A program made the translations under genes and the position numbers. This document shows, piece by piece, positions 4,274 to 61,776 of a stretch of 64,000 bases of DNA (within the stretch, counting starts at the first letter, position 1; each line of letters starts with the position of its first letter). Origin of the DNA: Patescibacteria group bacterium (lineage in GTDB: Bacteria > Patescibacteriota > Minisyncoccia > Phycocordibacterales > DATDWN01); NCBI GenBank assembly GCA_040389125.1, contig JAZKAN010000002.1, positions 1,232-65,231 of the forward strand, given 5' to 3'. The notes beneath the pieces are model-generated. The model worked only from the letters and a program-made list of their open reading frames with translations, did no database searches and was not told where the DNA came from.

Positions 4274-4443
4274 GCATTACAGAAGCATGAGCATTTTTGG
4301 AGACCCCGCAGGCCTGAAGCATGGTTCTGTCAACGACCCGCCTTTTAGGGGCGGGCTCATTGACAGATTCAGGTCGAGGAAATGCTGAAAGTCCCGCAGG
4401 GGACTTGAAGGAATCTCCAAAAATGCTCATGCTTCTGTAATGC
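4274..4443 (+). repeat. Nested-palindrome repeat, family A, copy 1
   Basis: A 30-nt outer arm GCATTACAGAAGCATGAGCATTTTTGGAGA (4274-4303) is exactly complementary to 4414-4443. The inner core CCGCAGGCCTGAAGCATGGTTCTGTCAACGAC..CTCATTGACAGATTCAGGTCGAGG is shared with 41795-41951 and 43798-43984. Confidence 0.7.
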
Positions 4444-6690: not shown

Positions 6691-7131
6691 ATGCAAACTC
6701 ATAATCTAAAGCGAACACACGCAAATAAAAAAGCACGACAAGTAGGTCGTGGGGGAACTCGTGGAAAAACAGCAGGACGTGGAACAAAAGGACAGAACGC
6801 GCGTGCGGGTCACAAGAAACGACCAGAAATCCGAGATTTCATCAAACGTCTTCCTAAACTTCGTGGACGAGGTAAAAATATCAACACAAGTATTCAAACA
6901 AAACCAGTTGTTGTGAATTTAAAGGACCTCAAAAAATGTAAAGATGGAGATACTGTATCTCCTCGAACACTCGTAAAACATGGTATAGTGAGTAAGGTCG
7001 CTGGTGACCTTCCTCGAATCAAAATCCTGGGCAGTGGTACAGTTGAGGTGAAACTGACTGTAAAAGACTGCGAAGTCTCAGCTAGTGCAAAGGAGGCAAT
7101 CGAGAAAGCTGGAGGGACGGTTGTTCTTTAA
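6691..7131 (+). CDS. rplO: 50S ribosomal protein L15
   Basis: 146 aa with KKARQVGRGGTRGKTAGRGTKGQNARAG. It starts 7 nt after the rpsE stop, so no rpmD lies between them. Confidence 0.95.
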   Translation: MQTHNLKRTHANKKARQVGRGGTRGKTAGRGTKGQNARAGHKKRPEIRDFIKRLPKLRGRGKNINTSIQTKPVVVNLKDLKKCKDGDTVSPRTLVKHGIVSKVAGDLPRIKILGSGTVEVKLTVKDCEVSASAKEAIEKAGGTVVL

Positions 7132-7250
7132 AATCTCATTCTCCTCATGGCTTTTTAAAACACGGAGTCGCTCGGGGCACTCGCGCTCCTCGCTCTCGGG
7201 CCGTCGCCCCGCGTACGGTTTTAAAAAGTCATGAGTCAACGAGATTTTAA
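7128..7250 (+). repeat. Nested-palindrome repeat, family B, copy 1 (overlaps the rplO stop codon)
   Basis: 7132-7246 matches 25592-25706 at 111 of 115 positions by hand alignment. Ends are AATCTC...GAGATT, the stem is CTCATGRCTTTTTAAAAC, and the core is GC-rich. Confidence 0.75.
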
Positions 7251-7300
7251 AGAATACTCGCCTCTGCGCCGGGGTGGTAAAAGAAAATTCAAAAAATACA

Positions 7301-8572: not shown

Positions 8573-8604
8573 AGAAGCCACCTTGGTTCGGAAAACTCAC
8601 AAAA

Positions 8605-8629
8605 AGCCCCTATTTTTAGGGGTATTTTT
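8605..8629 (+). terminator. Intrinsic terminator after secY
   Basis: CCCCT, loop ATTTTT, AGGGG, followed by TATTTTT. Confidence 0.6.
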
Positions 8630-8645
8630 GTGCCTCAAAATGTCC

Positions 8646-8674
8646 TTGACAAGAGATGTGAAAGGGTGTATAAT
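8646..8674 (+). promoter_or_regulatory. Consensus sigma70 promoter of the secY-adk orphan cassette
   Basis: TTGACA (8646-8651), 17-nt spacer, TATAAT (8669-8674). Confidence 0.6.
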
Positions 8675-9025
8675 ATAGGGTAGATGACCAACACACAGAG
8701 TTTTCTCATAGCTCGCTAAAAATGAGATTGGACATGTACTTCTCATAATGTCCTAGGGGCGGAAAGCACCCGAGAGAAAAGGTAATAACCGGCCTTGCTT
8801 AAAATGCGTTGCGTTTTGAGTAAAAGAGATTATGTGGAGACTAAGGGTTGCCACTGACGGATACTGGAACTTTCCTAAAGCTAGTATCAAATACCCTCCG
8901 TTTTTTTGGAGCCAACCAACGATTTGGTTGGCTCCAGTATTCAGAACCAGGAGTTGAATTGATTCTAATTCGATTTGTGGAATGATTCTGGAAATTCAAA
9001 AAGAAGTTCTTTGGAGAGAAAATCA

Positions 9026-9418
9026 ATGACAACCTGGCACCGACCAACGGGTCCGCAAGTAGAACTTGGGGATCACATTTCAAATCTGCTGGGAGTGTGG
9101 ATGGCACAGAACTTTCACACCAAAATGAGCATGACAATGAATCCGGACAAAGACGGAGCGTATGTCATCTCTGCTGGATGGAGGGAGCATAGCGGATACG
9201 ACAGCGTCGGCTGGTTAGATCCCAAACCTATCCTCACGATTCGAGTCAAACTCGACGAGAATCCGGCAATCAGGGTGACCTACGCACCGCCTTTCGAAAT
9301 CAACGAAGGGGTGCGGACATCATTCGGGATCGAAAATCACGAAGTCGCTGAGATGGTTATCGGGATTGGCAATACTCTTGCCCACTTTAATCCGCGAAAC
9401 CATCCTGAGATCCGCTAG
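9026..9418 (+). CDS. Hypothetical protein (orphan cassette between secY and adk)
   Basis: 130 aa from ATG 9026, preceded by GGAGAG. The region is GC-richer and has its own promoter and terminator. Confidence 0.5.
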   Translation: MTTWHRPTGPQVELGDHISNLLGVWMAQNFHTKMSMTMNPDKDGAYVISAGWREHSGYDSVGWLDPKPILTIRVKLDENPAIRVTYAPPFEINEGVRTSFGIENHEVAEMVIGIGNTLAHFNPRNHPEIR

Positions 9419-9540: not shown

Positions 9541-9663
9541 CAAATCTCGTCGACCAAATGCTTTTCCGGCGCATCACGGAATGAGTGAATACATGAGTGC
9601 GAGGAAAATTTTCAGCAGAAAATTATTCCGGCGACGGAAAAGCTTTTGGGAGAAAGAGATTTG
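9541..9663. repeat. Long imperfect palindrome (singleton) with family-B-like ends
   Basis: CAAATCTC...GAGATTTG termini. The internal stem GCTTTTCCG pairs with CGGAAAAGC, and CCAAA pairs with TTTGG (5 bp). Confidence 0.6.
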
Positions 9664-10337: not shown

Positions 10338-11105
10338 ATGATTAAATTAAAAACAAAGGAAGAAATAGAGATAATGAGGGAGGGTGGCAGGCGCCATGCC
10401 TTTATTTTGGCTGAACTTGCAAAAAAAGTTGTGCCTGGGATCTCGACGCAAACACTCGAGGATGAGGCACGGAGGATGATCAAGGAGGGAGGAGACAGTG
10501 CGTCATTTTTAAACTACACACCGAGGGGAGCACGACGTGCGTACCCTGCGGCACTGTGTGTATCGGTCAACAACGAAATTGTGCACGGTATACCAAACGA
10601 AAAGCCAACAATACTGCAAGAGGGCGACGTGGTGACCCTCGATCTGGGACTGACACATGACGGTCTGATTACAGACAGTGCCGTTACGGTTGGTGTGGGT
10701 AAAATCGCCGAGGAAGATAGAAAAATGCTTGAGCACTGCAAGGAGGCGCTTATGCTCGGAATCAAAGCGGCTCGCGGAGGAGGACGAGTTGGGGATATTG
10801 GGCATGCTATCGAGTCGTTTGTACGACCGCTGGGCTACGGGATGGCCGAGGGGCTCGCTGGGCACGGTGTAGGCTACAAGGTTCACGAGGAGCCGTTTGT
10901 ACCAAACGAAGGTCGCAAGGGTACCGGCGAGCTGCTACGGGCAGGGATGGTTATTGCTATTGAGCCAATGCTCACGCGCGGGACCGGACGTGTCACTCTG
11001 GCGCGAGATGGCTACACATACAAAACTACTGATGGCTCGAACGCCTGTCATTTTGAACATACAGTTGCGATTACGGATGGCGATCCGATTGTGTTGACGA
11101 AGTAA
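10338..11105 (+). CDS. map: Methionine aminopeptidase, type I
   Basis: 255 aa with VCVSVNNEIVHGIP, GDVVTLDLG, GHGVGYKVHEEP and IAIEPM, which supply the metal ligands. Confidence 0.95.
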   Translation: MIKLKTKEEIEIMREGGRRHAFILAELAKKVVPGISTQTLEDEARRMIKEGGDSASFLNYTPRGARRAYPAALCVSVNNEIVHGIPNEKPTILQEGDVVTLDLGLTHDGLITDSAVTVGVGKIAEEDRKMLEHCKEALMLGIKAARGGGRVGDIGHAIESFVRPLGYGMAEGLAGHGVGYKVHEEPFVPNEGRKGTGELLRAGMVIAIEPMLTRGTGRVTLARDGYTYKTTDGSNACHFEHTVAITDGDPIVLTK

Positions 11106-11199: not shown

Positions 11200-11805
11200 A
11201 TGCAACACCCCAAGAAAGAACGATCACTGACCATCATAAAGCCGGACGGAATTCAACGGACACTTGTTGCGGAAATTATTGGACGATATGAAAGGATGGG
11301 GCTCAAACTTATTGGAATCAAAATGTGTGTGCCAACAGAGGAGCAGATTGTAAAACACTACACACTTGACCCCGAGTGGCGCCGGATAACAGGCGAAAAG
11401 AGAATTAATGCTGCAAGGGAAAAAGGGGAGACTCCGCCTTCAACTGACCCACTTGAAATCACTCGGATCGTTTTGGAAAAATTAAAAAAATACATGACAT
11501 CTGGTCCGGTGATCGCTATGGTCTGGGAGGGTGCGCACGTGGTGGAAATCATACGCAAACTGACAGGTAGTACCGAACCTCGTATGTCTGATGTTGGTAC
11601 GATCCGTGGCGATTATGTTCTTGACTCATATCTGATGTCTGACGCAGACGGCCGTTCGATACGCAACCTCGTCCATGCATCCGGCTCGGCAAAGGAAGCC
11701 GAAGCAGAAATCGCTCACTGGTTTCGAGCTGACGAACTCATGGATTACACACTCATCGCCGAGAAAATTCTGTACGATGTGAATCTGGATGGGATTGGGG
11801 AGTAG
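11200..11805 (+). CDS. ndk: Nucleoside diphosphate kinase (long form)
   Basis: ERSLTIIKPDGIQR at the N-terminus and NLVHASGS, which carries the active-site His. It is about 60 aa longer than typical Ndk. Confidence 0.9.
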   Translation: MQHPKKERSLTIIKPDGIQRTLVAEIIGRYERMGLKLIGIKMCVPTEEQIVKHYTLDPEWRRITGEKRINAAREKGETPPSTDPLEITRIVLEKLKKYMTSGPVIAMVWEGAHVVEIIRKLTGSTEPRMSDVGTIRGDYVLDSYLMSDADGRSIRNLVHASGSAKEAEAEIAHWFRADELMDYTLIAEKILYDVNLDGIGE

Positions 11806-18471: not shown

Positions 18472-18586
18472 ATATTTAGTATATCATAGTACAACCTGTA
18501 CTCTCGATGAATGAGTTTGTCTAATGGGGTAGAATAATAATGTATGGTATCATATTTTCATATTACTAGTTTTCAAAACTATATAC

Positions 18587-19165
18587 ATGAAATTAAAAAT
18601 CGCCGTAATTATAGTAATCATTTTAATTCTAGTGGGAGTAGGATCGGTCTATTGGAGCACACAGACATCTTCAAGATCAATTGAGAAAATAAATTTTATA
18701 CCATATCTGGCGCAAAAATATGAAACTCCGAGTTCAGCAAATGCGGGGGATCCGTGTGTGGCAGGCTCAACACAACGTGTATTTGATACTACAGAAAATG
18801 CTGATGCCTACGGAGACGTCACGGGTGATGGAATTGAGGAGGCAGTTATAGATTATCGCACGTGTAATAATGGAACCGGCGGAGGAGAATCAGAAGTGTA
18901 TACGTTGGATAAGGCAGGTAATCTTGTAAATATAACTCCGAATTCGACAAAACTTTCGATGTCGGATTATGAAAAAATACTTGAGGGGACTCGGGGTCAT
19001 GGATATTTTGATATCAAAGACTCAAAATTGATTCTTACATATCCACTGTATGTTGACGGGGATTCAAACGCAAGTCCATCGGGTGGAACGCGCACAATTA
19101 CTTTTGATTGGGATGGAAATACCTTTGTGTATGGTAAAGTCTCTGACGAAGTTCAATCAGAGTAG
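18587..19165 (+). CDS. Hypothetical membrane-anchored protein
   Basis: 192-aa ORF with an N-terminal anchor. DVTGDGIEEAVIDY resembles an FG-GAP/VCBS-type motif. Confidence 0.6.
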   Translation: MKLKIAVIIVIILILVGVGSVYWSTQTSSRSIEKINFIPYLAQKYETPSSANAGDPCVAGSTQRVFDTTENADAYGDVTGDGIEEAVIDYRTCNNGTGGGESEVYTLDKAGNLVNITPNSTKLSMSDYEKILEGTRGHGYFDIKDSKLILTYPLYVDGDSNASPSGGTRTITFDWDGNTFVYGKVSDEVQSE

Positions 19166-19206
19166 ACAGGTACAAAAAATCATACTGCTCGCATGATCTC
19201 GCAATC

Positions 19207-19236
19207 AAAAACACGCCTTGGGTAAGGCGTGTTTTT
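19207..19236 (+). terminator. Intrinsic terminator
   Basis: AAAAACACGCCTT, loop GGGT, AAGGCGTGTTTTT. Confidence 0.75.
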
Positions 19237-19664
19237 GTAATTGTGGACATAAGGGCTAATATATCGAAACGGCTAACTGACTACCTTTCTCGGTTTTGGC
19301 ATTACTACCAATCAAGCCCAACTTTGCAAAAAGCCCTTGAAAACAATAGCTATACAGTGATTGCATAGTCACAAGTTGGCATTAAAAAATAGCATTCGAC
19401 CGAAGGGAGAATGCTGACTCTCGACCTCAGGAGAGAGTCCAACCCTGAGCCCTGGGTGGGGTGCGGGGAGGGCGCGTAAAAAATCGCGCGCAATCCCGCA
19501 CCATCGGTTGGGTTTTGTGTATGTAGAAGAGATTAACCTCAATCAAGTATATGAGGAAATCAGGTTTTGACCTTTTCACACCGCACCATTGACACATTTT
19601 CATAAAAGTGCTAACATACTTTTTAGTAGTACATTCCAATTCCTCTTATGAAGGAGCTTTACAA

Positions 19665-20477
19665 ATGAAGAAGAAACAGGTTCTCACACGTCTGGACACC
19701 CACATCAAACGTGGAAACATCCAAGTTAAGGGCGAGATTGCTTTCGCTCAATTTTTTCACTGGTGGCTCGGAAAGCTCACCATTCCTGCTGATGAGAAGT
19801 ACGACTTCTATCAGATCGAACATTTCCTTCCCCAGCTTGCTGTGGATGCATGGGAAGCGATGCGGACTGGTACAGACGAAGTTGCTCTTCTCTATCGCCA
19901 AAGATACGAACAGAGCACTAGTCGGTTGCCTGTAAACCTGATGGAACTCGGCGAGAACATTCTCCAGCAAGCTTCAGGCATCACCGTTATCCGTTACGTC
20001 TTGTCAGCAGTTGTTGGCGAGCGATGGATTGAAGACAAGGTGGACGCCTATTGCCATGCTCAGAGCACCGCGCTCCAAGGCATGTTCGATAAGTTTCTCC
20101 GCCTCGTCTACGGCAGAGGTCTGTTCGAAGTCATCCAAGCTTCCAAATCCAGCGGGATGAACGGGAGATTTGGTTCTACCGATCTTCGAACCTGGGTCTC
20201 TGCGGGGCGCACGATGTTCACCTTTGCTCGACCCAAGAAGAAAGGGGACGAGGTGAGTGTCTCGTTCGTTGCAGGCGATGATGATGCACTGGCTCTTGAA
20301 GCTGGCATCCAGTCTGTCGAGGCAAATCTACCAACGGCGTTCAGCATGATTGAAGATGTCATCGCAAGATGGCCGAACACGCGAGAGAAGCAGGAAGCGA
20401 TCTTCAGGGATAGCACCGTCGCTCCTCTTGCAGTTCATGCAATGAGGGCTCGGGCGAAAGCTGAAGGGAAGAAGTAG
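19665..20477 (+). CDS. Hypothetical protein (GC-richer orphan cassette)
   Basis: 270 aa from ATG 19665, preceded by GAAGGAG. A possible promoter is TTGACA, 17-nt spacer, TAACAT at about 19589-19617. It has its own terminator. Confidence 0.6.
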   Translation: MKKKQVLTRLDTHIKRGNIQVKGEIAFAQFFHWWLGKLTIPADEKYDFYQIEHFLPQLAVDAWEAMRTGTDEVALLYRQRYEQSTSRLPVNLMELGENILQQASGITVIRYVLSAVVGERWIEDKVDAYCHAQSTALQGMFDKFLRLVYGRGLFEVIQASKSSGMNGRFGSTDLRTWVSAGRTMFTFARPKKKGDEVSVSFVAGDDDALALEAGIQSVEANLPTAFSMIEDVIARWPNTREKQEAIFRDSTVAPLAVHAMRARAKAEGKK

Positions 20478-24863: not shown

Positions 24864-25091
24864 ATGAGTACACAAGAATATCAAGCTACCCCCGCCCAAA
24901 AAGAATTTCTCGTAGCACTGAAAAAATCAGGAATTATTGAACGTGCATGTAAAGAAGCTGGTATTTCAAGAACTACTTTCTACAGGTGGGATGATAGAGA
25001 AGATGATTTTAGTGCACTCGTCCTTGAAGCAATGTACGAAGCCAACCCTCGATATAAAGGAACAGCACGAGCTATTCTTCTTTATCTTTGA
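24864..25091 (+). CDS. Small helix-turn-helix DNA-binding protein (phage-type HTH)
   Basis: 75 aa. ACKEAGISRTTFYRWDDREDDF is a typical HTH followed by W..D..F, as in phage small-terminase or regulator HTH families. Confidence 0.6.
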   Translation: MSTQEYQATPAQKEFLVALKKSGIIERACKEAGISRTTFYRWDDREDDFSALVLEAMYEANPRYKGTARAILLYL

Positions 25092-25192
25092 TGAGAAACT
25101 CAAATATAGCAAAAAGGAAGGCTATCGAAACGATAATCTTCCTTGTGCTGTAAGGCTATTTGAGGAATTTGTTACCTCAAATACTCTAGATG

Positions 25193-25578
25193 TGGAGATG
25201 GCGACATCGAAGTCGCATGCATAGAGAGAATTGAAGCGGGTCTACAGCGCGTAGTTTGTTTTAGTGTTTTAAATCATACTGCTCGGAACAAACAAAATAC
25301 AGTATGATCGAGTCATCTTTTTTTCGAAACATACTCGAGACTAAATATGTTTCTAACCTGCGTTTTATATCAATCAACTTCCCGTAGCGGGTGTGAGGGA
25401 AGCGACCGTCGTTTAGGCGTTAGCGTAAGCGAAGGAGAAATCATTTACAGTGAAGTAAGGAGATTTAACCTTTGTAACTAAGTTGTTTACACTTAAGTTT
25501 TTCGTGCTGTTTTAGGAGGACACGATACTCCGCGTTGCGCGAATCAATTGGCAAACTATGTCAAAACCTGTCATCCCC
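25193..25578 (-). ncRNA. ssrA: tmRNA (SsrA)
   Basis: The minus-strand 5' end is GGGGATGACAGGTTTTGACA. The 3' end is GCGAC-TTCGAT-GTCGC, then CATCTCC, then A. This gives a 7-bp acceptor stem with a G3:U70 pair. The in-frame tag candidate ends NDFSFAYANA then TAA. smpB is adjacent. Confidence 0.85.
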
Positions 25579-25586
25579 GATGTTAA

Positions 25587-25710
25587 TATACAATCTCTTT
25601 CTCCTCATGACTTTTTAAAACACGGAGTCGCTCGGGGCACTCGCGCTCCTCGCTCTCGGGCCGTCGCCCTGTGTACGGTTTTAAAAAGTCATGAGTCAAC
25701 GAGATTGTAT
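25587..25710 (+). repeat. Nested-palindrome repeat, family B, copy 2
   Basis: 25592-25706 matches 7132-7246 at 111 of 115 positions. It lies between the ssrA 5' end and the smpB stop. Confidence 0.75.
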
Positions 25711-25738
25711 CTCTAACATCGGGTCAGGTATTGTTTTG

Positions 25739-26182
25739 TCAACGATCTTTTAAATCACGCTCGATATCGCGTCCAGACTCACGTTTCTTTATGGTCTCGC
25801 GTTTGTCGAACTTCTTCTTGCCTTTTACAGACGCAATATCGAGCTTTACCTTACTGCCTTTATTATACACCGAAAGTGGCACTATTGTCAACCCCTTTGT
25901 ACCCTCGATTTTACTCAGGTCATGAATCTCGGTTTTTTTGAGCAGGAGCCTGCGGTTGCGGTATGGGTCGTACTCCGTAGGAGTGTTGCCGACTTGGTAT
26001 GGTGGTATGAACATACCCACCACAAATGCCTCGTTCCCGCGGATAGTGACGTGTGCTCCCTCGAGCGAGCCCTGACTCTGTTTGAGTGCCTTCACTTCAA
26101 AGCCAAAAAGCTCTATGCCCGCAGAGTATTTATCGAGTATTTCATGGTTGAAACTGGCTTTGTGGTTCGTAATGAGAGACAT
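25739..26182 (-). CDS. smpB: SsrA-binding protein SmpB
   Basis: 147 aa with YSAGIELFGFEVKALK, PYRNRRLLLKKTEI and IVPLSVYNKGSKVKLDIA. Confidence 0.95.
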   Translation of the reverse strand: MSLITNHKASFNHEILDKYSAGIELFGFEVKALKQSQGSLEGAHVTIRGNEAFVVGMFIPPYQVGNTPTEYDPYRNRRLLLKKTEIHDLSKIEGTKGLTIVPLSVYNKGSKVKLDIASVKGKKKFDKRETIKKRESGRDIERDLKDR

Positions 26183-28869: not shown

Positions 28870-28942
28870 GCGCGTGTAGCTCAGTTGGTAGAGCGTTCGT
28901 CTTATACACGAATGGCCGGGGGTCCGAATCCCTCCACGCGCA
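28870..28942 (+). tRNA. tRNA-Ile, anticodon UAU
   Basis: Hand-folded cloverleaf. Acceptor GCGCGTG/CACGCGC, D arm GCTC-AGTTGGTA-GAGC, anticodon arm TTCGT-CTTATAC-ACGAA (TAT at 28913-28915), T arm GGGGG-TCCGAAT-CCCTC. No encoded CCA. Confidence 0.8.
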
Positions 28943-29103
28943 CAAAAAATTATATTTACAATGAAAAGAGAAGACAAAATTTTGATAATATCGATCGGTG
29001 TTCTAATTCTTGTATACATCCTTATACAATTTGTCCGTGTGAACTGGAACTGGTATCAAAATGAAAAGGCGATGAGGGCTGAATCCTCATTACAAATTTT
29101 TTC

Positions 29104-43797: not shown

Positions 43798-43984
43798 GAA
43801 AACTTTTCAAACTCCTCTCCCCAAACCCGTTTCAGAGACGCTCGCTTTTCCTGCGAAAAGCTCTCTCGGTCCTCGACCTGAATCCGTCAATGAGCCCAAG
43901 TATTCTCTTGGGTCGTTGACGGAACCATGCTTCAGGTCTGCGGATGCTCTGAAACCGGTTCGGGTCGACGAGCTTGAAAAGTTT
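43798..43984 (-). repeat. Nested-palindrome repeat, family A, copy 3 (inverted orientation)
   Basis: The reverse complement carries CCGCAGACCTGAAGCATGGTTCCGTCAACGAC..CTCATTGACGGATTCAGGTCGAGG and CTTTTCGCAGGAAAAG. It begins at the base after the pilM stop codon. Confidence 0.7.
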
Positions 43985-44515: not shown

Positions 44516-44733
44516 TGAATAAATCCAGAATAATATAATTTTGGAAACTCCGGAAACGATTAGGAAACAACGACGAATGAAGAGGAGTCCGAAGCACTGT
44601 TTGAGCACAGGTACTCCTGGCGAGTTTGCGAGAGGACTCTGGAATGAGGACGATTGTTTCCTTGATCGTTGAGGTAGAGGAAAAAGTCACCAGACTTTTA
44701 TCCGTTTTTCAAAATTATATTATTCTGGATTCA
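44516..44733 (+). repeat. Nested-palindrome repeat, family C, copy 1
   Basis: The outer arm AATCCAGAATAATATAATTTTG pairs with CAAAATTATATTATTCTGGATT. The core CCGAAGCACTGTTTGAGCACAGGTACTCCTGGCGAGTTTGCGAGAGG is shared, in reverse complement, with 58384-58594. Confidence 0.7.
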
Positions 44734-44827
44734 TGAACCACTTTGTCCACAGCTCCCACTGTGTTTTTTATTTCCATATTCTTGTATACTTACTCTAGTA
44801 TTTGTGCGCGAATTCACACACTAACTC

Positions 44828-51037: not shown

Positions 51038-51493
51038 ATGAAAAAGAGTCTTTCACGAGGTTTCACACTCATTGAACTTTTGGTTGTTATCGCTATCATC
51101 GGTATCTTGTCATCAGTTGTTCTCGCATCACTCAACACAGCACGAACAAAGGGTGCAGATGCAGCTATAAAGAGCAACCTAAACAATACACGTGCTCAGG
51201 CAGAACTTATATATGACCCAGCAGGTTCATATGCAACTGTTTGTGCTGATACAACAACAATTCAGAAAGCTATGGCAGCGGCTCATGTTGCTGCAGGTCT
51301 CACTGGTGCAGATACATACGCTTTTGCTACAGCAGGAACTTCTAACACTGTTGCTTGTCAGTCACAGGCTGGTTCATGGGCTATTGAAGCGCCTCTAAAG
51401 GGAGGTGGATACTGGTGTGTAGATAGTACAGGATTTTCTGGAGCACGAGTAAGTGTTCTTGCAGCATCTGCAGGTGCTTGCCCAGCTACATGA
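51038..51493 (+). CDS. Type IV pilin (prepilin N-terminal cleavage/methylation motif)
   Basis: The N-terminus MKKSLSRG/FTLIELLVVIAIIGILSSVVLASL is a class III signal. A C-terminal Cys pair is present. Confidence 0.88.
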   Translation: MKKSLSRGFTLIELLVVIAIIGILSSVVLASLNTARTKGADAAIKSNLNNTRAQAELIYDPAGSYATVCADTTTIQKAMAAAHVAAGLTGADTYAFATAGTSNTVACQSQAGSWAIEAPLKGGGYWCVDSTGFSGARVSVLAASAGACPAT

Positions 51494-51623: not shown

Positions 51624-52046
51624 ATGCATCATTCGCGCACACATGGATTTACACTCATTGAACTTTTGGTAGTTATCTCAATCATTGGGGTATTGAGTTC
51701 TATTGTCCTTGCTTCACTAACAAATGCACGAAGCAAAGGAGCGGATTCTGCTATAAAATCTAATTTAAATAATATACGTTCGCAGGCAGAATTGTCCTAT
51801 GATAACGGTGCAAATGGATATCAAGGTGCATGTACATTTGGAAATAATACTGATTTGTACAATGCTGCAAAAGCCGCTGCAGGGTGTGGAGGAGCAACGT
51901 GTGGGGCGTGTGCAAACAGTACTGGTGCGTGGTCAGTGTGGGTTCAACTCAAAACGGTTCCTGCAGATGCCTGGTGTGTGGATTACAAGGGGAGCGCTAA
52001 AACAGTCAGTCCAAAACCTGCTGCCCCTATAACTTCCTGCCCCTAG
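51624..52046 (+). CDS. Type IV pilin, second paralogue
   Basis: The N-terminus is MHHSRTHG/FTLIELLVVISIIGVLSSIVLASL. Confidence 0.88.
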   Translation: MHHSRTHGFTLIELLVVISIIGVLSSIVLASLTNARSKGADSAIKSNLNNIRSQAELSYDNGANGYQGACTFGNNTDLYNAAKAAAGCGGATCGACANSTGAWSVWVQLKTVPADAWCVDYKGSAKTVSPKPAAPITSCP

Positions 52047-54816: not shown

Positions 54817-58381
<3,565 letters not shown>

Positions 58382-58383
58382 GT

Positions 58384-58594
58384 AAAGGAAATAAATATAT
58401 TTTCAGAGCACGCATAAAATTGTACTCAATTTTTGCTCTCGCTCAGAGATCAAGAAAATAATACACTCAATGCGTAGCCCTCTCGCAAACTCGCCAGGAT
58501 TACCTGTGCTCAAACAGTGCTTCGGGCTTACTTCATTTTCGCTGTTATTTTCTAATCTCTTCCGCAGTCTCAAAAAATTATATTTATTTTCTTT
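58384..58594 (-). repeat. Nested-palindrome repeat, family C, copy 2 (inverted)
   Basis: The reverse complement carries CCGAAGCACTGTTTGAGCACAGGTAATCCTGGCGAGTTTGCGAGAGG plus homologous arms. It starts 3 nt after the ligA stop. Confidence 0.7.
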
Positions 58595-58626
58595 ACTTTT
58601 GCTCATTTTCCAAAAAATGCTATTGT

Positions 58627-61426: not shown

Positions 61427-61432
61427 ATCTTG

Positions 61433-61776
61433 TTGCGGGACCAGGACTTGCACCTGGGTCTGAAGGTTATGCTTTCCACTATAGTTTTCACTACTTCCAA
61501 ATTTCAAAAATTTGTAATTTGTGGTCTGGACTATACCATTTCCTTTTTCAAACGAGTTTGAAGGTAAGGAATTCACCATCTAGTCTCTACACATTTATCA
61601 GTTGATTTTAGTCATCTGAATTTAGCTCGGAATTGTCTTTCTCTACTATACTATAGTAAAGAGAGGATTTCTCCGAATTTGGCGAATGCAATCCTAAAAA
61701 TTTCTTTTTAGGTGGCCCATACAGGATGCAAGATCCAATACTTGAGCCTTCCGAGATACTGCTTCTCTATCCCGCT
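61433..61776 (-). tRNA. Initiator-like tRNA(CAU) interrupted by a 273-nt group I intron in the anticodon loop
   Basis: The 5' exon (61776-61745) is AGCGGGA-TA-GAGA-AGCAGTA-TCTC-G-GAAGG-CT. The 3' exon (61471-61433) is CATAA-CCTTC-AGAC-CCAGG-TGCAAGT-CCTGG-TCCCGCA-A. The spliced loop is CTCATAA. Features are A11:U24 and a 1:72 mismatch. Confidence 0.75.
61472..61744 (-). mobile_element. Group I self-splicing intron (IC3/Azoarcus-like core)
   Basis: The minus strand contains GTGTAGAGACTAGATGG (plus-strand 61576-61592) and CAAATTCGGAGAAATCC (61665-61681). As recalled, these closely match the Azoarcus tRNA-Ile intron core segments. U precedes the 5' splice site and G ends the intron. Confidence 0.75.

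Follow-up and report, generated by a model that had tools for sequence, protein, structure and literature searches.

Rickettsia palindromic elements (RPEs) are palindromic, noncoding repeats of 100 to 150 nt that inhabit a reduced genome without an associated transposase, and we know of no target-site duplication (TSD) recognized for them. They occur in spacers, in frame within genes, and in tmRNA; the 526 RPEs counted in Rickettsia bellii include 53 within protein genes and a single one within the tmRNA gene (PMC1458961). The stretch of DNA analyzed here (the window, 64 kb of a Paceibacteria [Patescibacteria] MAG) carries a previously undescribed family of small, noncoding hairpin repeats capped by a three-way junction, for which RPEs are, on our best reading, the closest match in behavior, and by behavior only. 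Its members share with RPEs the size range and palindromic, noncoding character, the reduced host genome, and the lack of both a TSD and (within the window) an accompanying transposase, as well as the choice of sites: spacers, an in-frame position within a comEC gene, and positions adjoining ssrA in three genomes. The hosts belong to different phyla (Patescibacteria versus Alphaproteobacteria), no sequence relationship is expected, and copy number is apparently much lower here, at about 1 per 10 kb in the window and about 1 per 65 kb in relatives. The covarying three-way-junction core belongs to the present elements and, to our knowledge, is not a described feature of RPEs.

Other systems resemble the family in part. 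Bacterial MITEs (e.g., the Correia elements of Neisseria, RUP, and ERIC) are similarly small (100 to 170 nt), AT rich, and hairpin forming, with inverted ends and locations in transcribed intergenic regions and within operons, and their hairpin RNA probably serves as a substrate for RNase III. The REP/REPIN-RAYT and IS200/IS605 PATE systems have in common with the present elements the absence of a TSD, definition by structure, a long hairpin, intergenic positions near gene 3′ ends, and probably a single-strand mechanism. Integron attC sites, of similar size (57 to 141 nt), are likewise folded single-strand sites in which structure is conserved over sequence, arranged as outer and inner stems separated by an unpaired, asymmetric spacer and topped by a variable terminal structure. 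Unlike in attC, however, the GTTGACT of the present elements (6 of 7 positions against the R-box consensus GTTRRRY) sits in an unpaired internal loop and has no R″ box as a pairing partner, the window holds no intI/integrase or cassette array, and the copies are dispersed in core operons. The rRNA IVS excised by RNase III are extended stem-loops as well and occur sporadically in highly expressed RNA genes, where they cap helices or hairpins that already exist, whereas the elements described here lie in spacers of protein and tmRNA genes and not within rRNA helices.

The original prediction described a 115-nt repeat present in two copies that were identical at 111 positions. Segments 7132-7246 and 25592-25706 of the plus strand indeed differ at 4 of 115 positions, and the ends AATCTC...GAGATT, the 18-bp stem, and the enclosed GC-rich core were all located as described (Table 1). 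A 45-nt stretch of that core has two exact matches in the window, where shuffles lead one to expect none, and both copies fold well below dinucleotide shuffles (for the copy next to rplO, W1, z = −9.5 on one strand and −7.5 on the other; for the copy next to ssrA, W2, z = −10.5). Since W1 and W2 are far closer to each other than either is to any other member, sequence comparison supports recent copying of one from the other. By the same comparison, the pair appears as a private GC-core variant of a wider family (the B family), in which the AT-rich hairpin of the P2 arm would have been exchanged for GC-rich sequence in this lineage specifically.

Table 1. Positions of hairpin elements, their parts, and the host genes at the W1 and W2 sites in the 64-kb window
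Feature	Position	Strand	Remarks
"Family A" hairpin of the original prediction	4274..4443	-	30-bp perfect stem around a structured core
rplO (uL15)	6691..7131	+	
W1 left flank arm TTCTTTAA	7124..7131	+	Copy specific; 8 bp with 7247-7254
W1, B-family hairpin element, rplO-secY spacer	7131..7247	+	Covariance model R1, 97 bits; R2 core, 43 bits (- strand)
W1 outer stem	7131-7137 / 7241-7247		
W1 asymmetric internal loop	7138-7143 / 7236-7240		ATTCTC opposite TCAAC
W1 18-bp stem, CTCATGRCTTTTTAAAAC / GTTTTAAAAAGTCATGAG	7144-7161 / 7218-7235		
W1 GC-rich core	7162-7217		
W1 right flank arm TTAAAGAA	7247..7254	+	Copy specific
W3, typical B-family member upstream of adk	9542..9662	-	R1, 115 bits; R2, 47 bits
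tmRNA (ssrA)	25190..25578	-	
W2 distal arm CCCGATGTTA	25576..25585	+	10-bp outer stem with 25714-25723
W2, spacer between smpB stop and tmRNA 5′ end	25591..25707	+	Shared unit 25592-25706; scored by R1 and R2
W2 distal arm TAACATCGGG	25714..25723	+	Partner of 25576-25585
smpB	25739..26182	-	
WA2, superfamily member after pilM	43808..43976	+	R1, 35 bits (scored by R1 only); termini CAAACTC..GAGCTTG
Hairpin element	44519..44734	+	Apex 44630-44712 fits core model; R2, 34.8 bits
Hairpin element after ligA	58380..58600	-	Apex 58403-58504 fits core model; R2, 32.1 bits

Members of the B family measure about 117 nt, end in AAATCTC...GAGATTT, and carry a conserved asymmetric internal loop, purine rich, in the closing stem; the terminal inverted repeats are perfect over these 7 bp and continue imperfectly to about 30 nt. 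Eleven members were found (W1, W2, W3, L002, L004, and six distinct metagenome elements), so that the repeat is not confined to two sites and the prediction of a dispersed, noncoding, nonautonomous repeat was borne out. Among the 11, whose gene contexts number at least 8, similarity is bounded by the same AAATCTC...GAGATTT; the metagenome search pattern demanded conserved ends and the relatives were sampled around secY loci, which biases the members and the contexts seen, respectively. A covariance model of the family (R1) scores 10 of the 11 at 97 to 119 bits and L002 at 50.5 bits, and compensatory changes occur at 20 of the 34 B-family pairs. W3 shows the common pattern, with termini and internal loop as in W1 and W2, an AT-rich P2 hairpin (GGAATAATTTTCTGCTGAAAATTTTCC), and the opposite orientation. 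A search of genome contigs with the exact-end pattern gave 0 matches. Two further candidates from the metagenome scan, L085 and L087, were rejected as chance matches, one being GC-rich coding sequence and the other lacking the hairpin.

Beyond the B family, a covariance model of the core alone (R2) has at least 28 matches in 1.44 Mb of Paceibacteria DNA, 6 of them within the window, and these define a superfamily. The unit is a single long hairpin with a three-way junction at its apex; this core of about 65 nt is conserved, while the long, clade-specific stems that close it are unrelated in sequence. The P2 arm of the junction carries a bulged A besides its (C)AGCA(G) loop; in the P3 arm, a GA-rich internal loop is combined with a GACG loop. 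When core positions are compared with their predicted partners, 90% of cells pair, against 33 to 53% when the partners are slid; double changes are found at all 14 pairs, and the observed score was reached in 0 of 500 shuffles. Apparent covariation in a hairpin can also be produced without selection, through template-switch palindrome correction. Within the window, WA2 combines a B-like loop and a P2 hairpin with a long P3 expansion in common with 4274-4443; this shared segment, inverted, ties the latter hairpin to WA2, and neither R1 nor R2 scores it. Segments 58466-58528 and 44586-44648 are 89% complementary. In 22 of 23 elements the better fold is that of the reverse strand, with G·U pairs numbering 59 versus 15 by strand. 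About half of the folding difference is compositional, according to controls, and the G·T and A·C mismatches of the consensus helices are balanced, without strand asymmetry; strand-specific folding was consequently discarded as a strong sign of a functional strand, and the strand specificity of the fold is a weakly supported hint.

The elements matched no described family in the collections searched. Rfam 15, whose scope includes hammerhead, twister, twister-sister, pistol, hatchet, HDV-like, and group II D5-D6 RNAs, gave no match at gathering score in the window, none at an E value of ≤10 on W1, and none at an E value of ≤1 on six loci with typical members. No element match was found in viral contigs, phages, or plasmids, the element translated in its three open frames had no match in the protein database, and a literature search on MITEs and palindromic repeats in Patescibacteria/CPR returned nothing relevant. 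Inspected by eye against consensus sequences, the conserved loops fit neither hammerhead, K-turn, guanidine-II (ACGR loop), attC R-box, nor sigma70-promoter motifs. An intrinsic terminator was also rejected: the stems exceed 30 bp and contain internal loops, W1 occupies the rplO-secY spacer within the spc operon, and a canonical terminator follows secY at 8597-8630.

We put the probability at roughly 0.5 that W1 and W2 are nonautonomous, structure-defined hairpin repeats, mobile or copy converted, of a family or superfamily that has spread through Paceibacteria genomes. Comparisons between species point to movement. The rplO-secY spacer, occupied in the window and in L002, is only 4 to 13 nt long in the five nearest relatives, which makes the element there a gain relative to these; conversely, adk-map is occupied in L004 and empty in the window. 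One member (L083) lies in frame within a ComEC-like open reading frame, and the homolog in L084 is about 45 residues shorter. At two sites the junction is identical and the orientation is reversed: W1 versus L002 at rplO-secY, and L086 versus L091 at smpB-ssrA. No mobilizing enzyme, within-population empty-site polymorphism, or excision footprint was seen. We propose that machinery supplied in trans copies the element to new sites or over resident copies and leaves no TSD; this machinery would recognize the element as a folded single strand, not through its terminal repeats in double-stranded form. Copies may then persist in very short spacers beside stop codons and occasionally in frame within genes, while the stem would later grow outward into its flanks, by palindrome-correcting template switching or under selection for pairing, giving each copy its own complementary flanks.

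The flanks of W1 and W2 are, as originally noted, complementary within each copy and different between copies. The left arm of W1 includes the last rplO codon and the stop TAA (7129-7131), so that the predicted overlap with the rplO stop codon holds for the flank stem, which covers the last two codons and the stop; the shared 115-nt unit merely abuts the TAA. RplO here ends in VVL, versus VVAK or SVA in relatives, and the divergence begins where the flank arm begins. W2, with inner flanks ATAC and GTAT, is located 13 nt upstream of the mature tmRNA 5′ end, and its outer stem takes in the first 3 nt of tmRNA (5′ end at 25578, minus strand). Essential host sequence (the rplO stop codon, the tmRNA 5′ end) is thus incorporated into both flank stems. 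Although oppositely oriented, the element of L002 has the flank arms of W1 with two changes, both fully compensated, which fits active palindrome maintenance. Insertion at the center of palindromes, proposed originally as a rule, does not generalize: long complementarity past the outermost pair is found in only about 5 to 6 of 18 members, and extension of the stem after insertion explains the flank stems as well as does targeting of preexisting palindromes.

An alternative, possible but well short of even odds, is that structured hairpins have resided at rplO-secY and smpB-ssrA since before the lineages split and have undergone concerted evolution. Such a hairpin may be kept for a host function, such as providing an RNase III or other processing site that parts smpB mRNA from pre-tmRNA or stabilizing a transcript, and the 96.5% identity of W1 and W2 would stem from gene conversion anchored in the conserved termini and not from new insertion. 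Diverged members do occupy both sites in related genomes (L002 at rplO-secY; L086 and L091 at smpB-ssrA), so the identity may reflect replacement or conversion of resident copies; of the recent spread originally read from it, the recency of one copy stands. The identity of W1 and W2 ends 1 base inside the outer limit of the 7-bp terminal stem, where a compensatory difference makes the outermost pair A-T in W1 and C-G in W2, as would be expected of a conversion tract ending inside the homology. In L086 as in the window, the flank stems extend to the tmRNA 5′ end. However, orientation at the same site differs among relatives and is mixed relative to the flanking genes, which a cis RNA function would not readily explain, the rplO-secY element is absent from the nearest relatives, and members are found at many unrelated sites, one within a coding region. 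Conversion would moreover account for the similarity of W1 and W2 and not for the origin of the family.

A more far-reaching and doubtful extension is that the three-way junction represents a new class of functional single-stranded motif (a small catalytic or guide-like RNA, or a folded-DNA recombination site) driving a hitherto unknown, TSD-less mobilization pathway with a preference for hairpins or dyads in CPR bacteria, which otherwise have few mobile elements. If so, the long, variable stems would be hairpins that the junction has invaded or built.

It is rather improbable that the elements belong to the IS200/IS605-PATE or REP/REPIN type, in which a Y1 HUH transposase (TnpA or RAYT) binds hairpins on the lagging-strand template. 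A hairpin that defines the family, covarying stems, the lack of a TSD, and the weak strand asymmetry of folding are all consistent with a single-stranded DNA element, as is a nonrandom orientation: of 27 scorable cases, about 19 have the same strand lying antisense to the gene upstream. Against it, the left flanks hold no conserved tetra- or pentanucleotide that could correspond to a target motif, and neither a REP-like unit of 20 to 40 nt nor a GTAG-type head was found in the elements. There is one hairpin with a conserved asymmetric apical junction, in place of two subterminal hairpins in direct orientation or two inverted REP units, and we know of no counterpart of this three-way-junction apex in PATEs or REPINs. 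The transposase partner suggested originally (an IS200/IS605-type TnpA or another transposase) did not emerge: a Pfam search of the 64-kb window revealed no clear transposase (Y1/RAYT included), integrase, RT, or HUH protein. One sub-threshold HTH_Tnp-like match was the only related Pfam signal there.

Still less probable is a classical MITE mobilized in trans by an IS630/Tc1-mariner- or piggyBac-type DDE transposase, with TA or TTAA duplicated on insertion and the terminal repeats serving as protein-binding sites. Size, AT-rich inverted ends, and noncoding nature fit this description, W1 is flanked by TTAA on both sides, and TA flanks both W1 and W2 when these are taken as 117 nt. Being palindromic, TTAA and TA would double as direct repeats; W1 and W2 alone therefore cannot show the absence of a direct TSD that had been claimed for them, and the claim is carried instead by the nine other members, whose unrelated flanking dinucleotides rule out TA or TTAA. 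Because no consistent TSD exists across the 11 B-family members, the MITE explanation is largely refuted, and the absence of a TA or other TSD also separates the family from Correia, RUP, and ERIC elements. No transposase was detected in the window, and no solitary ends that might bound a larger, cognate element were found in 1.46 Mb. Furthermore, the widest conservation is in the structured core and not in the terminal repeats, with superfamily stems unrelated and the apical core conserved, the reverse of the pattern in a classical MITE.

Exact-protein lookups of smpB and secY gave no match, and those of rplO and adk returned only short Logan unitigs, ending inside W1 and W3; these breaks were not taken as evidence of repeat copy number, since perfect palindromes can suffice to break a de Bruijn graph. 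Beyond them nothing favors chance similarity or an assembly artifact, an explanation of negligible probability given that 0 chance matches are expected, that an independent assembly of SRR26324622 gives the exact rplO/W1 junction, and that homologous elements occur in many independent metagenomes and MAGs.

Genomes of Patescibacteria are tiny and streamlined, with spacers of a few nucleotides and few recognizable mobile elements. In the window, structured hairpins make up about 1.5 to 2% of the sequence, and members are present within the spc ribosomal-protein operon, beside tmRNA, and, in one relative, inside comEC. Such hairpins break assemblies, create spurious open reading frames, and alter gene ends; here, rplO takes its last codon and its stop codon from them. 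The two covariance models offer concrete, searchable means of mapping the family and seeking the enzyme that moves it, and the core model also allows tests for activity of the RNA or DNA fold. Should the nonautonomous hairpin-repeat reading hold, selfish or semidomesticated palindromes would shape the genomes of Patescibacteria too, in parallel to those of Rickettsia.

The near-identical repeats W1, between rplO and secY, and W2, between smpB and the tmRNA gene ssrA, give a gapless alignment with four differences, in agreement with the 111/115 identity originally predicted. Their GC-rich 45-nt core occurs exactly twice in the window, against an expectation of zero in shuffles. Each copy forms a single long hairpin, with a folding energy 7.5 to 10.5 SD below dinucleotide shuffles on either strand. 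The flanking bases are, as described earlier, complementary within a copy and unrelated between copies, the arms being TTCTTTAA/TTAAAGAA at W1 and, at W2, ATAC/GTAT, a short bulge and then CCCGATGTTA/TAACATCGGG. Overlap with the rplO stop codon holds for the copy-specific flank stem of W1 only; the shared unit abuts the codon. W2 sits downstream of the smpB stop, 13 nt before the tmRNA 5' end, and its outer flank arm reaches three nucleotides into the tmRNA.

Elements and associated features, by window position unless a locus is named (L-numbers denote loci from related Paceibacteria genomes, metagenome contigs or unitigs)
Feature	Position	Strand	Remark
rplO stop codon	7129-7131		TAA
W1	7132-7246		rplO-secY
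W2	25592-25706		smpB-ssrA
W1/W2 hairpin, outermost part			outer stem AATCTC/GAGATT
W1/W2 hairpin, next inward			asymmetric internal loop, (A/T)TTCTC opposite TCAAC
W1/W2 hairpin, third part inward			AT-rich stem, 18 bp
W1/W2 hairpin, innermost part			GC-rich apex, 56 nt
W3	9542-9662		third, diverged B-family member
tmRNA (ssrA)	25190-25578	minus
smpB	25739-26182	minus
AACCTG pairing, smpB-ssrA spacer	25724-25745 with 25565-25578		equivalents in L086 and L091
Apices of two further hairpins	44630-44712 and 58403-58504		R2 matches
Paired members in one locus	L022:204-313 and 331-409; L032:7898-8006 and 10988-11058; L048:644-738 and 11292-11351
Unrelated rplO-secY hairpins	L009:9876-10001, L010:9884-10001, L013:9293-9397, L044:9899-9998, L079:3815-3975

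The element has relatives beyond these two copies. Eleven members, W3 among them, align from AAATCTC to GAGATTT and no further, which defines a discrete unit of ~117 nt (the B family), and compensatory changes occur at 20 of its 34 pairs (RNAalifold). Typical members carry an AT-rich apical hairpin, GGAATAATTTTCTGCTGAAAATTTTCC; W1 and W2 are a variant with GC-rich sequence in its place, with no other instance among the members found. One member, from a Zambryskibacteria MAG (L004), occupies the adk-map spacer, which is 8 nt long in the window. A metagenome scan with a pattern of the conserved outer stem and loop only returned 10 contigs, eight with real elements (six distinct) and two chance matches; the contexts and members seen are bounded by this need for conserved ends and by the sampling of relatives around secY.

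The covariance model of the B family (R1) also matched, at full length but more weakly, sequences in other Paceibacteria and window 43808-43976; on inspection, the long stems of these matches were unrelated in sequence and the apex was conserved. On the strand complementary to '+' at W1 and W2, this apex reads as a three-way junction of helices P1, P2 and P3 in the order P1 - C(C)UUGCGCAG - P3 - GAGCRGAG - P2 - CGUG - P1'. The P3 arm comprises GCGC-GACG-GCGC over a GA-rich 3x2 internal loop and a 4-bp lower helix, and the P2 arm G-N-A, 7 bp, the loop (C)AGCA(G), a bulged A and U-N'-C. A covariance model of this core (R2) found 28 matches in 1.44 Mb. In the R2 alignment, which is model-fitted and thus biased toward the structure, 90% of cells pair compared to 33-53% with partners slid, changes occur on both sides in 14/14 pairs, and no shuffle reached the observed covariation. 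That pairing is kept up by compensatory change, with loop and junction sequences conserved, is a solid conclusion from these comparisons. The window holds six model-scored members of this superfamily (five by R2, one by R1 only); a seventh hairpin (4274-4443), earlier named family A, is linked through sequence alone, by a long P3 expansion shared with 43808-43976. Member density in the sampled relatives is ~1 per 65 kb. Some relatives carry two members inside one 20-kb locus, nearly tandem in L022 (17 nt apart).

In 22 of 23 elements, the strand complementary to '+' at W1/W2 folds with the lower minimum free energy, and it carries 59 G.U pairs, compared to 15 on the other. However, shuffles of the same composition reproduce about half of the energy difference (-3.7 versus -7.1 kcal/mol observed), and G.T and A.C mismatches are balanced within the consensus helices (11 versus 5 and 9 versus 8), so strand specificity of the fold is no more than hinted at.

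The uL15 protein matches one from a Patescibacteria MAG at 100% identity; its next relatives are Zambryskibacteria and Paceibacterota. Across 80 SecY-centered loci from GTDB species representatives, the rplO-secY spacer is mostly ≤25 nt, and 4-13 nt in the five closest relatives, which indicates that the 170-nt spacer of the window is derived. A closer relative, L002, with uL15 91% identical, carries an element of 156 nt in this spacer, in the opposite orientation, that shares with W1 the outer 14 nt (TTCTTTCAAATTTC...GAAATTTGAAAGAA) and the internal loop; its apex differs in sequence except for the shared core motif, and both changes that separate the 14-bp outer stems are compensated. Other Paceibacteria carry unrelated hairpins in this spacer, with arms of short tandem repeats (e.g., ACGAATAT.., CAGTTTA.., CGAAATC..), and the junction has repeatedly gained hairpins of differing origin. 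Among Logan unitigs of SRR26324622, L001 ends 49 nt into W1 and L094 begins inside W3; such hairpins break up de Bruijn assemblies.

Between smpB and ssrA, a member is found in three related genomes, those of the window, L086/L089 and L091, with SmpB 77-83% identical. L086 and L091 hold theirs in opposite orientations, yet share an identical smpB-side junction, GAGATT|TGCTTTRGG. The stretch from element to tmRNA (6-13 nt) is unrelated among the three and, in the window and L086, complementary to the genome's own opposite flank. Upstream of the element, a conserved AACCTG, itself just preceded by a conserved TTGACA, is complementary to tmRNA nt ~9-14 (CAGGTT) in 3/3 genomes; spacer and element together could therefore pair onto the tmRNA 5' region. 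A more distantly related Paceibacterota genome has smpB and ssrA separated by a GC-rich, highly structured insert of ~850 nt with small ORFs (L060:19037-19890).

No consistent target-site duplication was found across the members compared, bearing out the original prediction on this point; a TA or TTAA duplication would fit W1 and W2 alone. The predicted rule of insertion at palindrome centers did not generalize. Of the 11 B members, 10 have complementary bases immediately outside AATCTC/GAGATT (A-T in eight, C-G in W2, G-C in L084), but 10 of 18 members have nothing complementary beyond the outermost pair. Runs of at least 6 beyond it occur only in W1, L002, L032 and 43808-43976 (6-11 bp); W2 has a 3-bp run and a 10-bp distal stem, and a distal 7-bp stem seen by eye in L086 is not significant against shuffles. 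A variable outward growth of the stem accounts better for the copy-specific flanks, because one flank contains constrained host sequence (the rplO stop or the tmRNA 5' end) and because the two double changes between the W1 and L002 arms leave their complementarity perfect. Such growth could come from palindrome-correcting template switching or from selection for pairing, and both flank points would fit either. Pre-existing dyads that served as insertion targets are a less favored, conceivable source of the complementarity.

Recent copying is evident from the 96.5% identity of W1 and W2, as proposed from their likeness. Whether this was a fresh insertion is another matter: relatives carry diverged members at both sites, and the identity ends one base inside the terminal stem, making replacement or gene conversion between resident copies a serious alternative.

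Elsewhere in the window, a perfect sigma70-like promoter (TTGACA-17-TATAAT) lies at 8645-8680, after the secY terminator; the next ~340 nt gave no ORF or Rfam match, and a 130-aa ORF without a Pfam match lies at 9026-9418, so that 8645-9418 may comprise an unannotated leader or small RNA and an orphan gene. ARAGORN placed a tRNA-Ile with anticodon TAT at 28870-28943, a dedicated AUA-decoding tRNA of a kind uncommon in bacteria, and, with its intron option, a tRNA-Leu(CAA) at 61432-61776 (-) split by a 273-nt group I intron (Rfam Intron_gpI, 64 bits). A 163-nt direct repeat (51054-51216 and 51640-51802; 72% identity) coincides with the N-terminal parts of two neighboring type IV pilin-like genes (N_methyl motif) in a pilus operon with pilM, pilB, pilT, pilC and prepilin peptidase.

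The search for an autonomous partner was negative: Pfam scans of ~50 window ORFs gave no clear match to a transposase, integrase, reverse transcriptase or HUH protein, and 1.46 Mb held no solitary element ends able to bound an autonomous copy. The sole related Pfam signal in the window is a 75-aa ORF (24864-25091) with weak HTH_Tnp-like matches. About 100 nt separate it from the tmRNA 3' end, where elements classically integrate, and it may be left over from an integrated element. No Rfam family matched the repeat. It lacks defining traits of classical MITEs, having no target-site duplications and ends that are not its conserved part, and of IS200/IS605 derivatives, as it has no target motif and is a single hairpin, and it fails the tests that define REPINs and attC sites.

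Orientation relative to neighboring genes is mixed and not random: among 27 scorable cases, ~19 have the same strand antisense to the gene upstream. L083 carries a ~100-nt superfamily hairpin (18750-18852) in frame within a ComEC-like ORF (18543-20150), between two transmembrane segments; the L084 homologue has ~45 fewer residues at this position, and a B-family copy occupies its neighboring rnhA-comEC spacer. This resembles the in-frame insertions of Rickettsia palindromic elements, which are the closest in behavior and number 526 in R. bellii, 53 of them in protein genes and one in the tmRNA gene (PMC1458961). With 11 B members and a wider superfamily, the data fit the non-autonomous dispersed repeat originally proposed: a structure-defined element that would be copied around Paceibacteria genomes without target-site duplication and tolerated in minimal spacers by stop codons and, occasionally, in frame inside genes.
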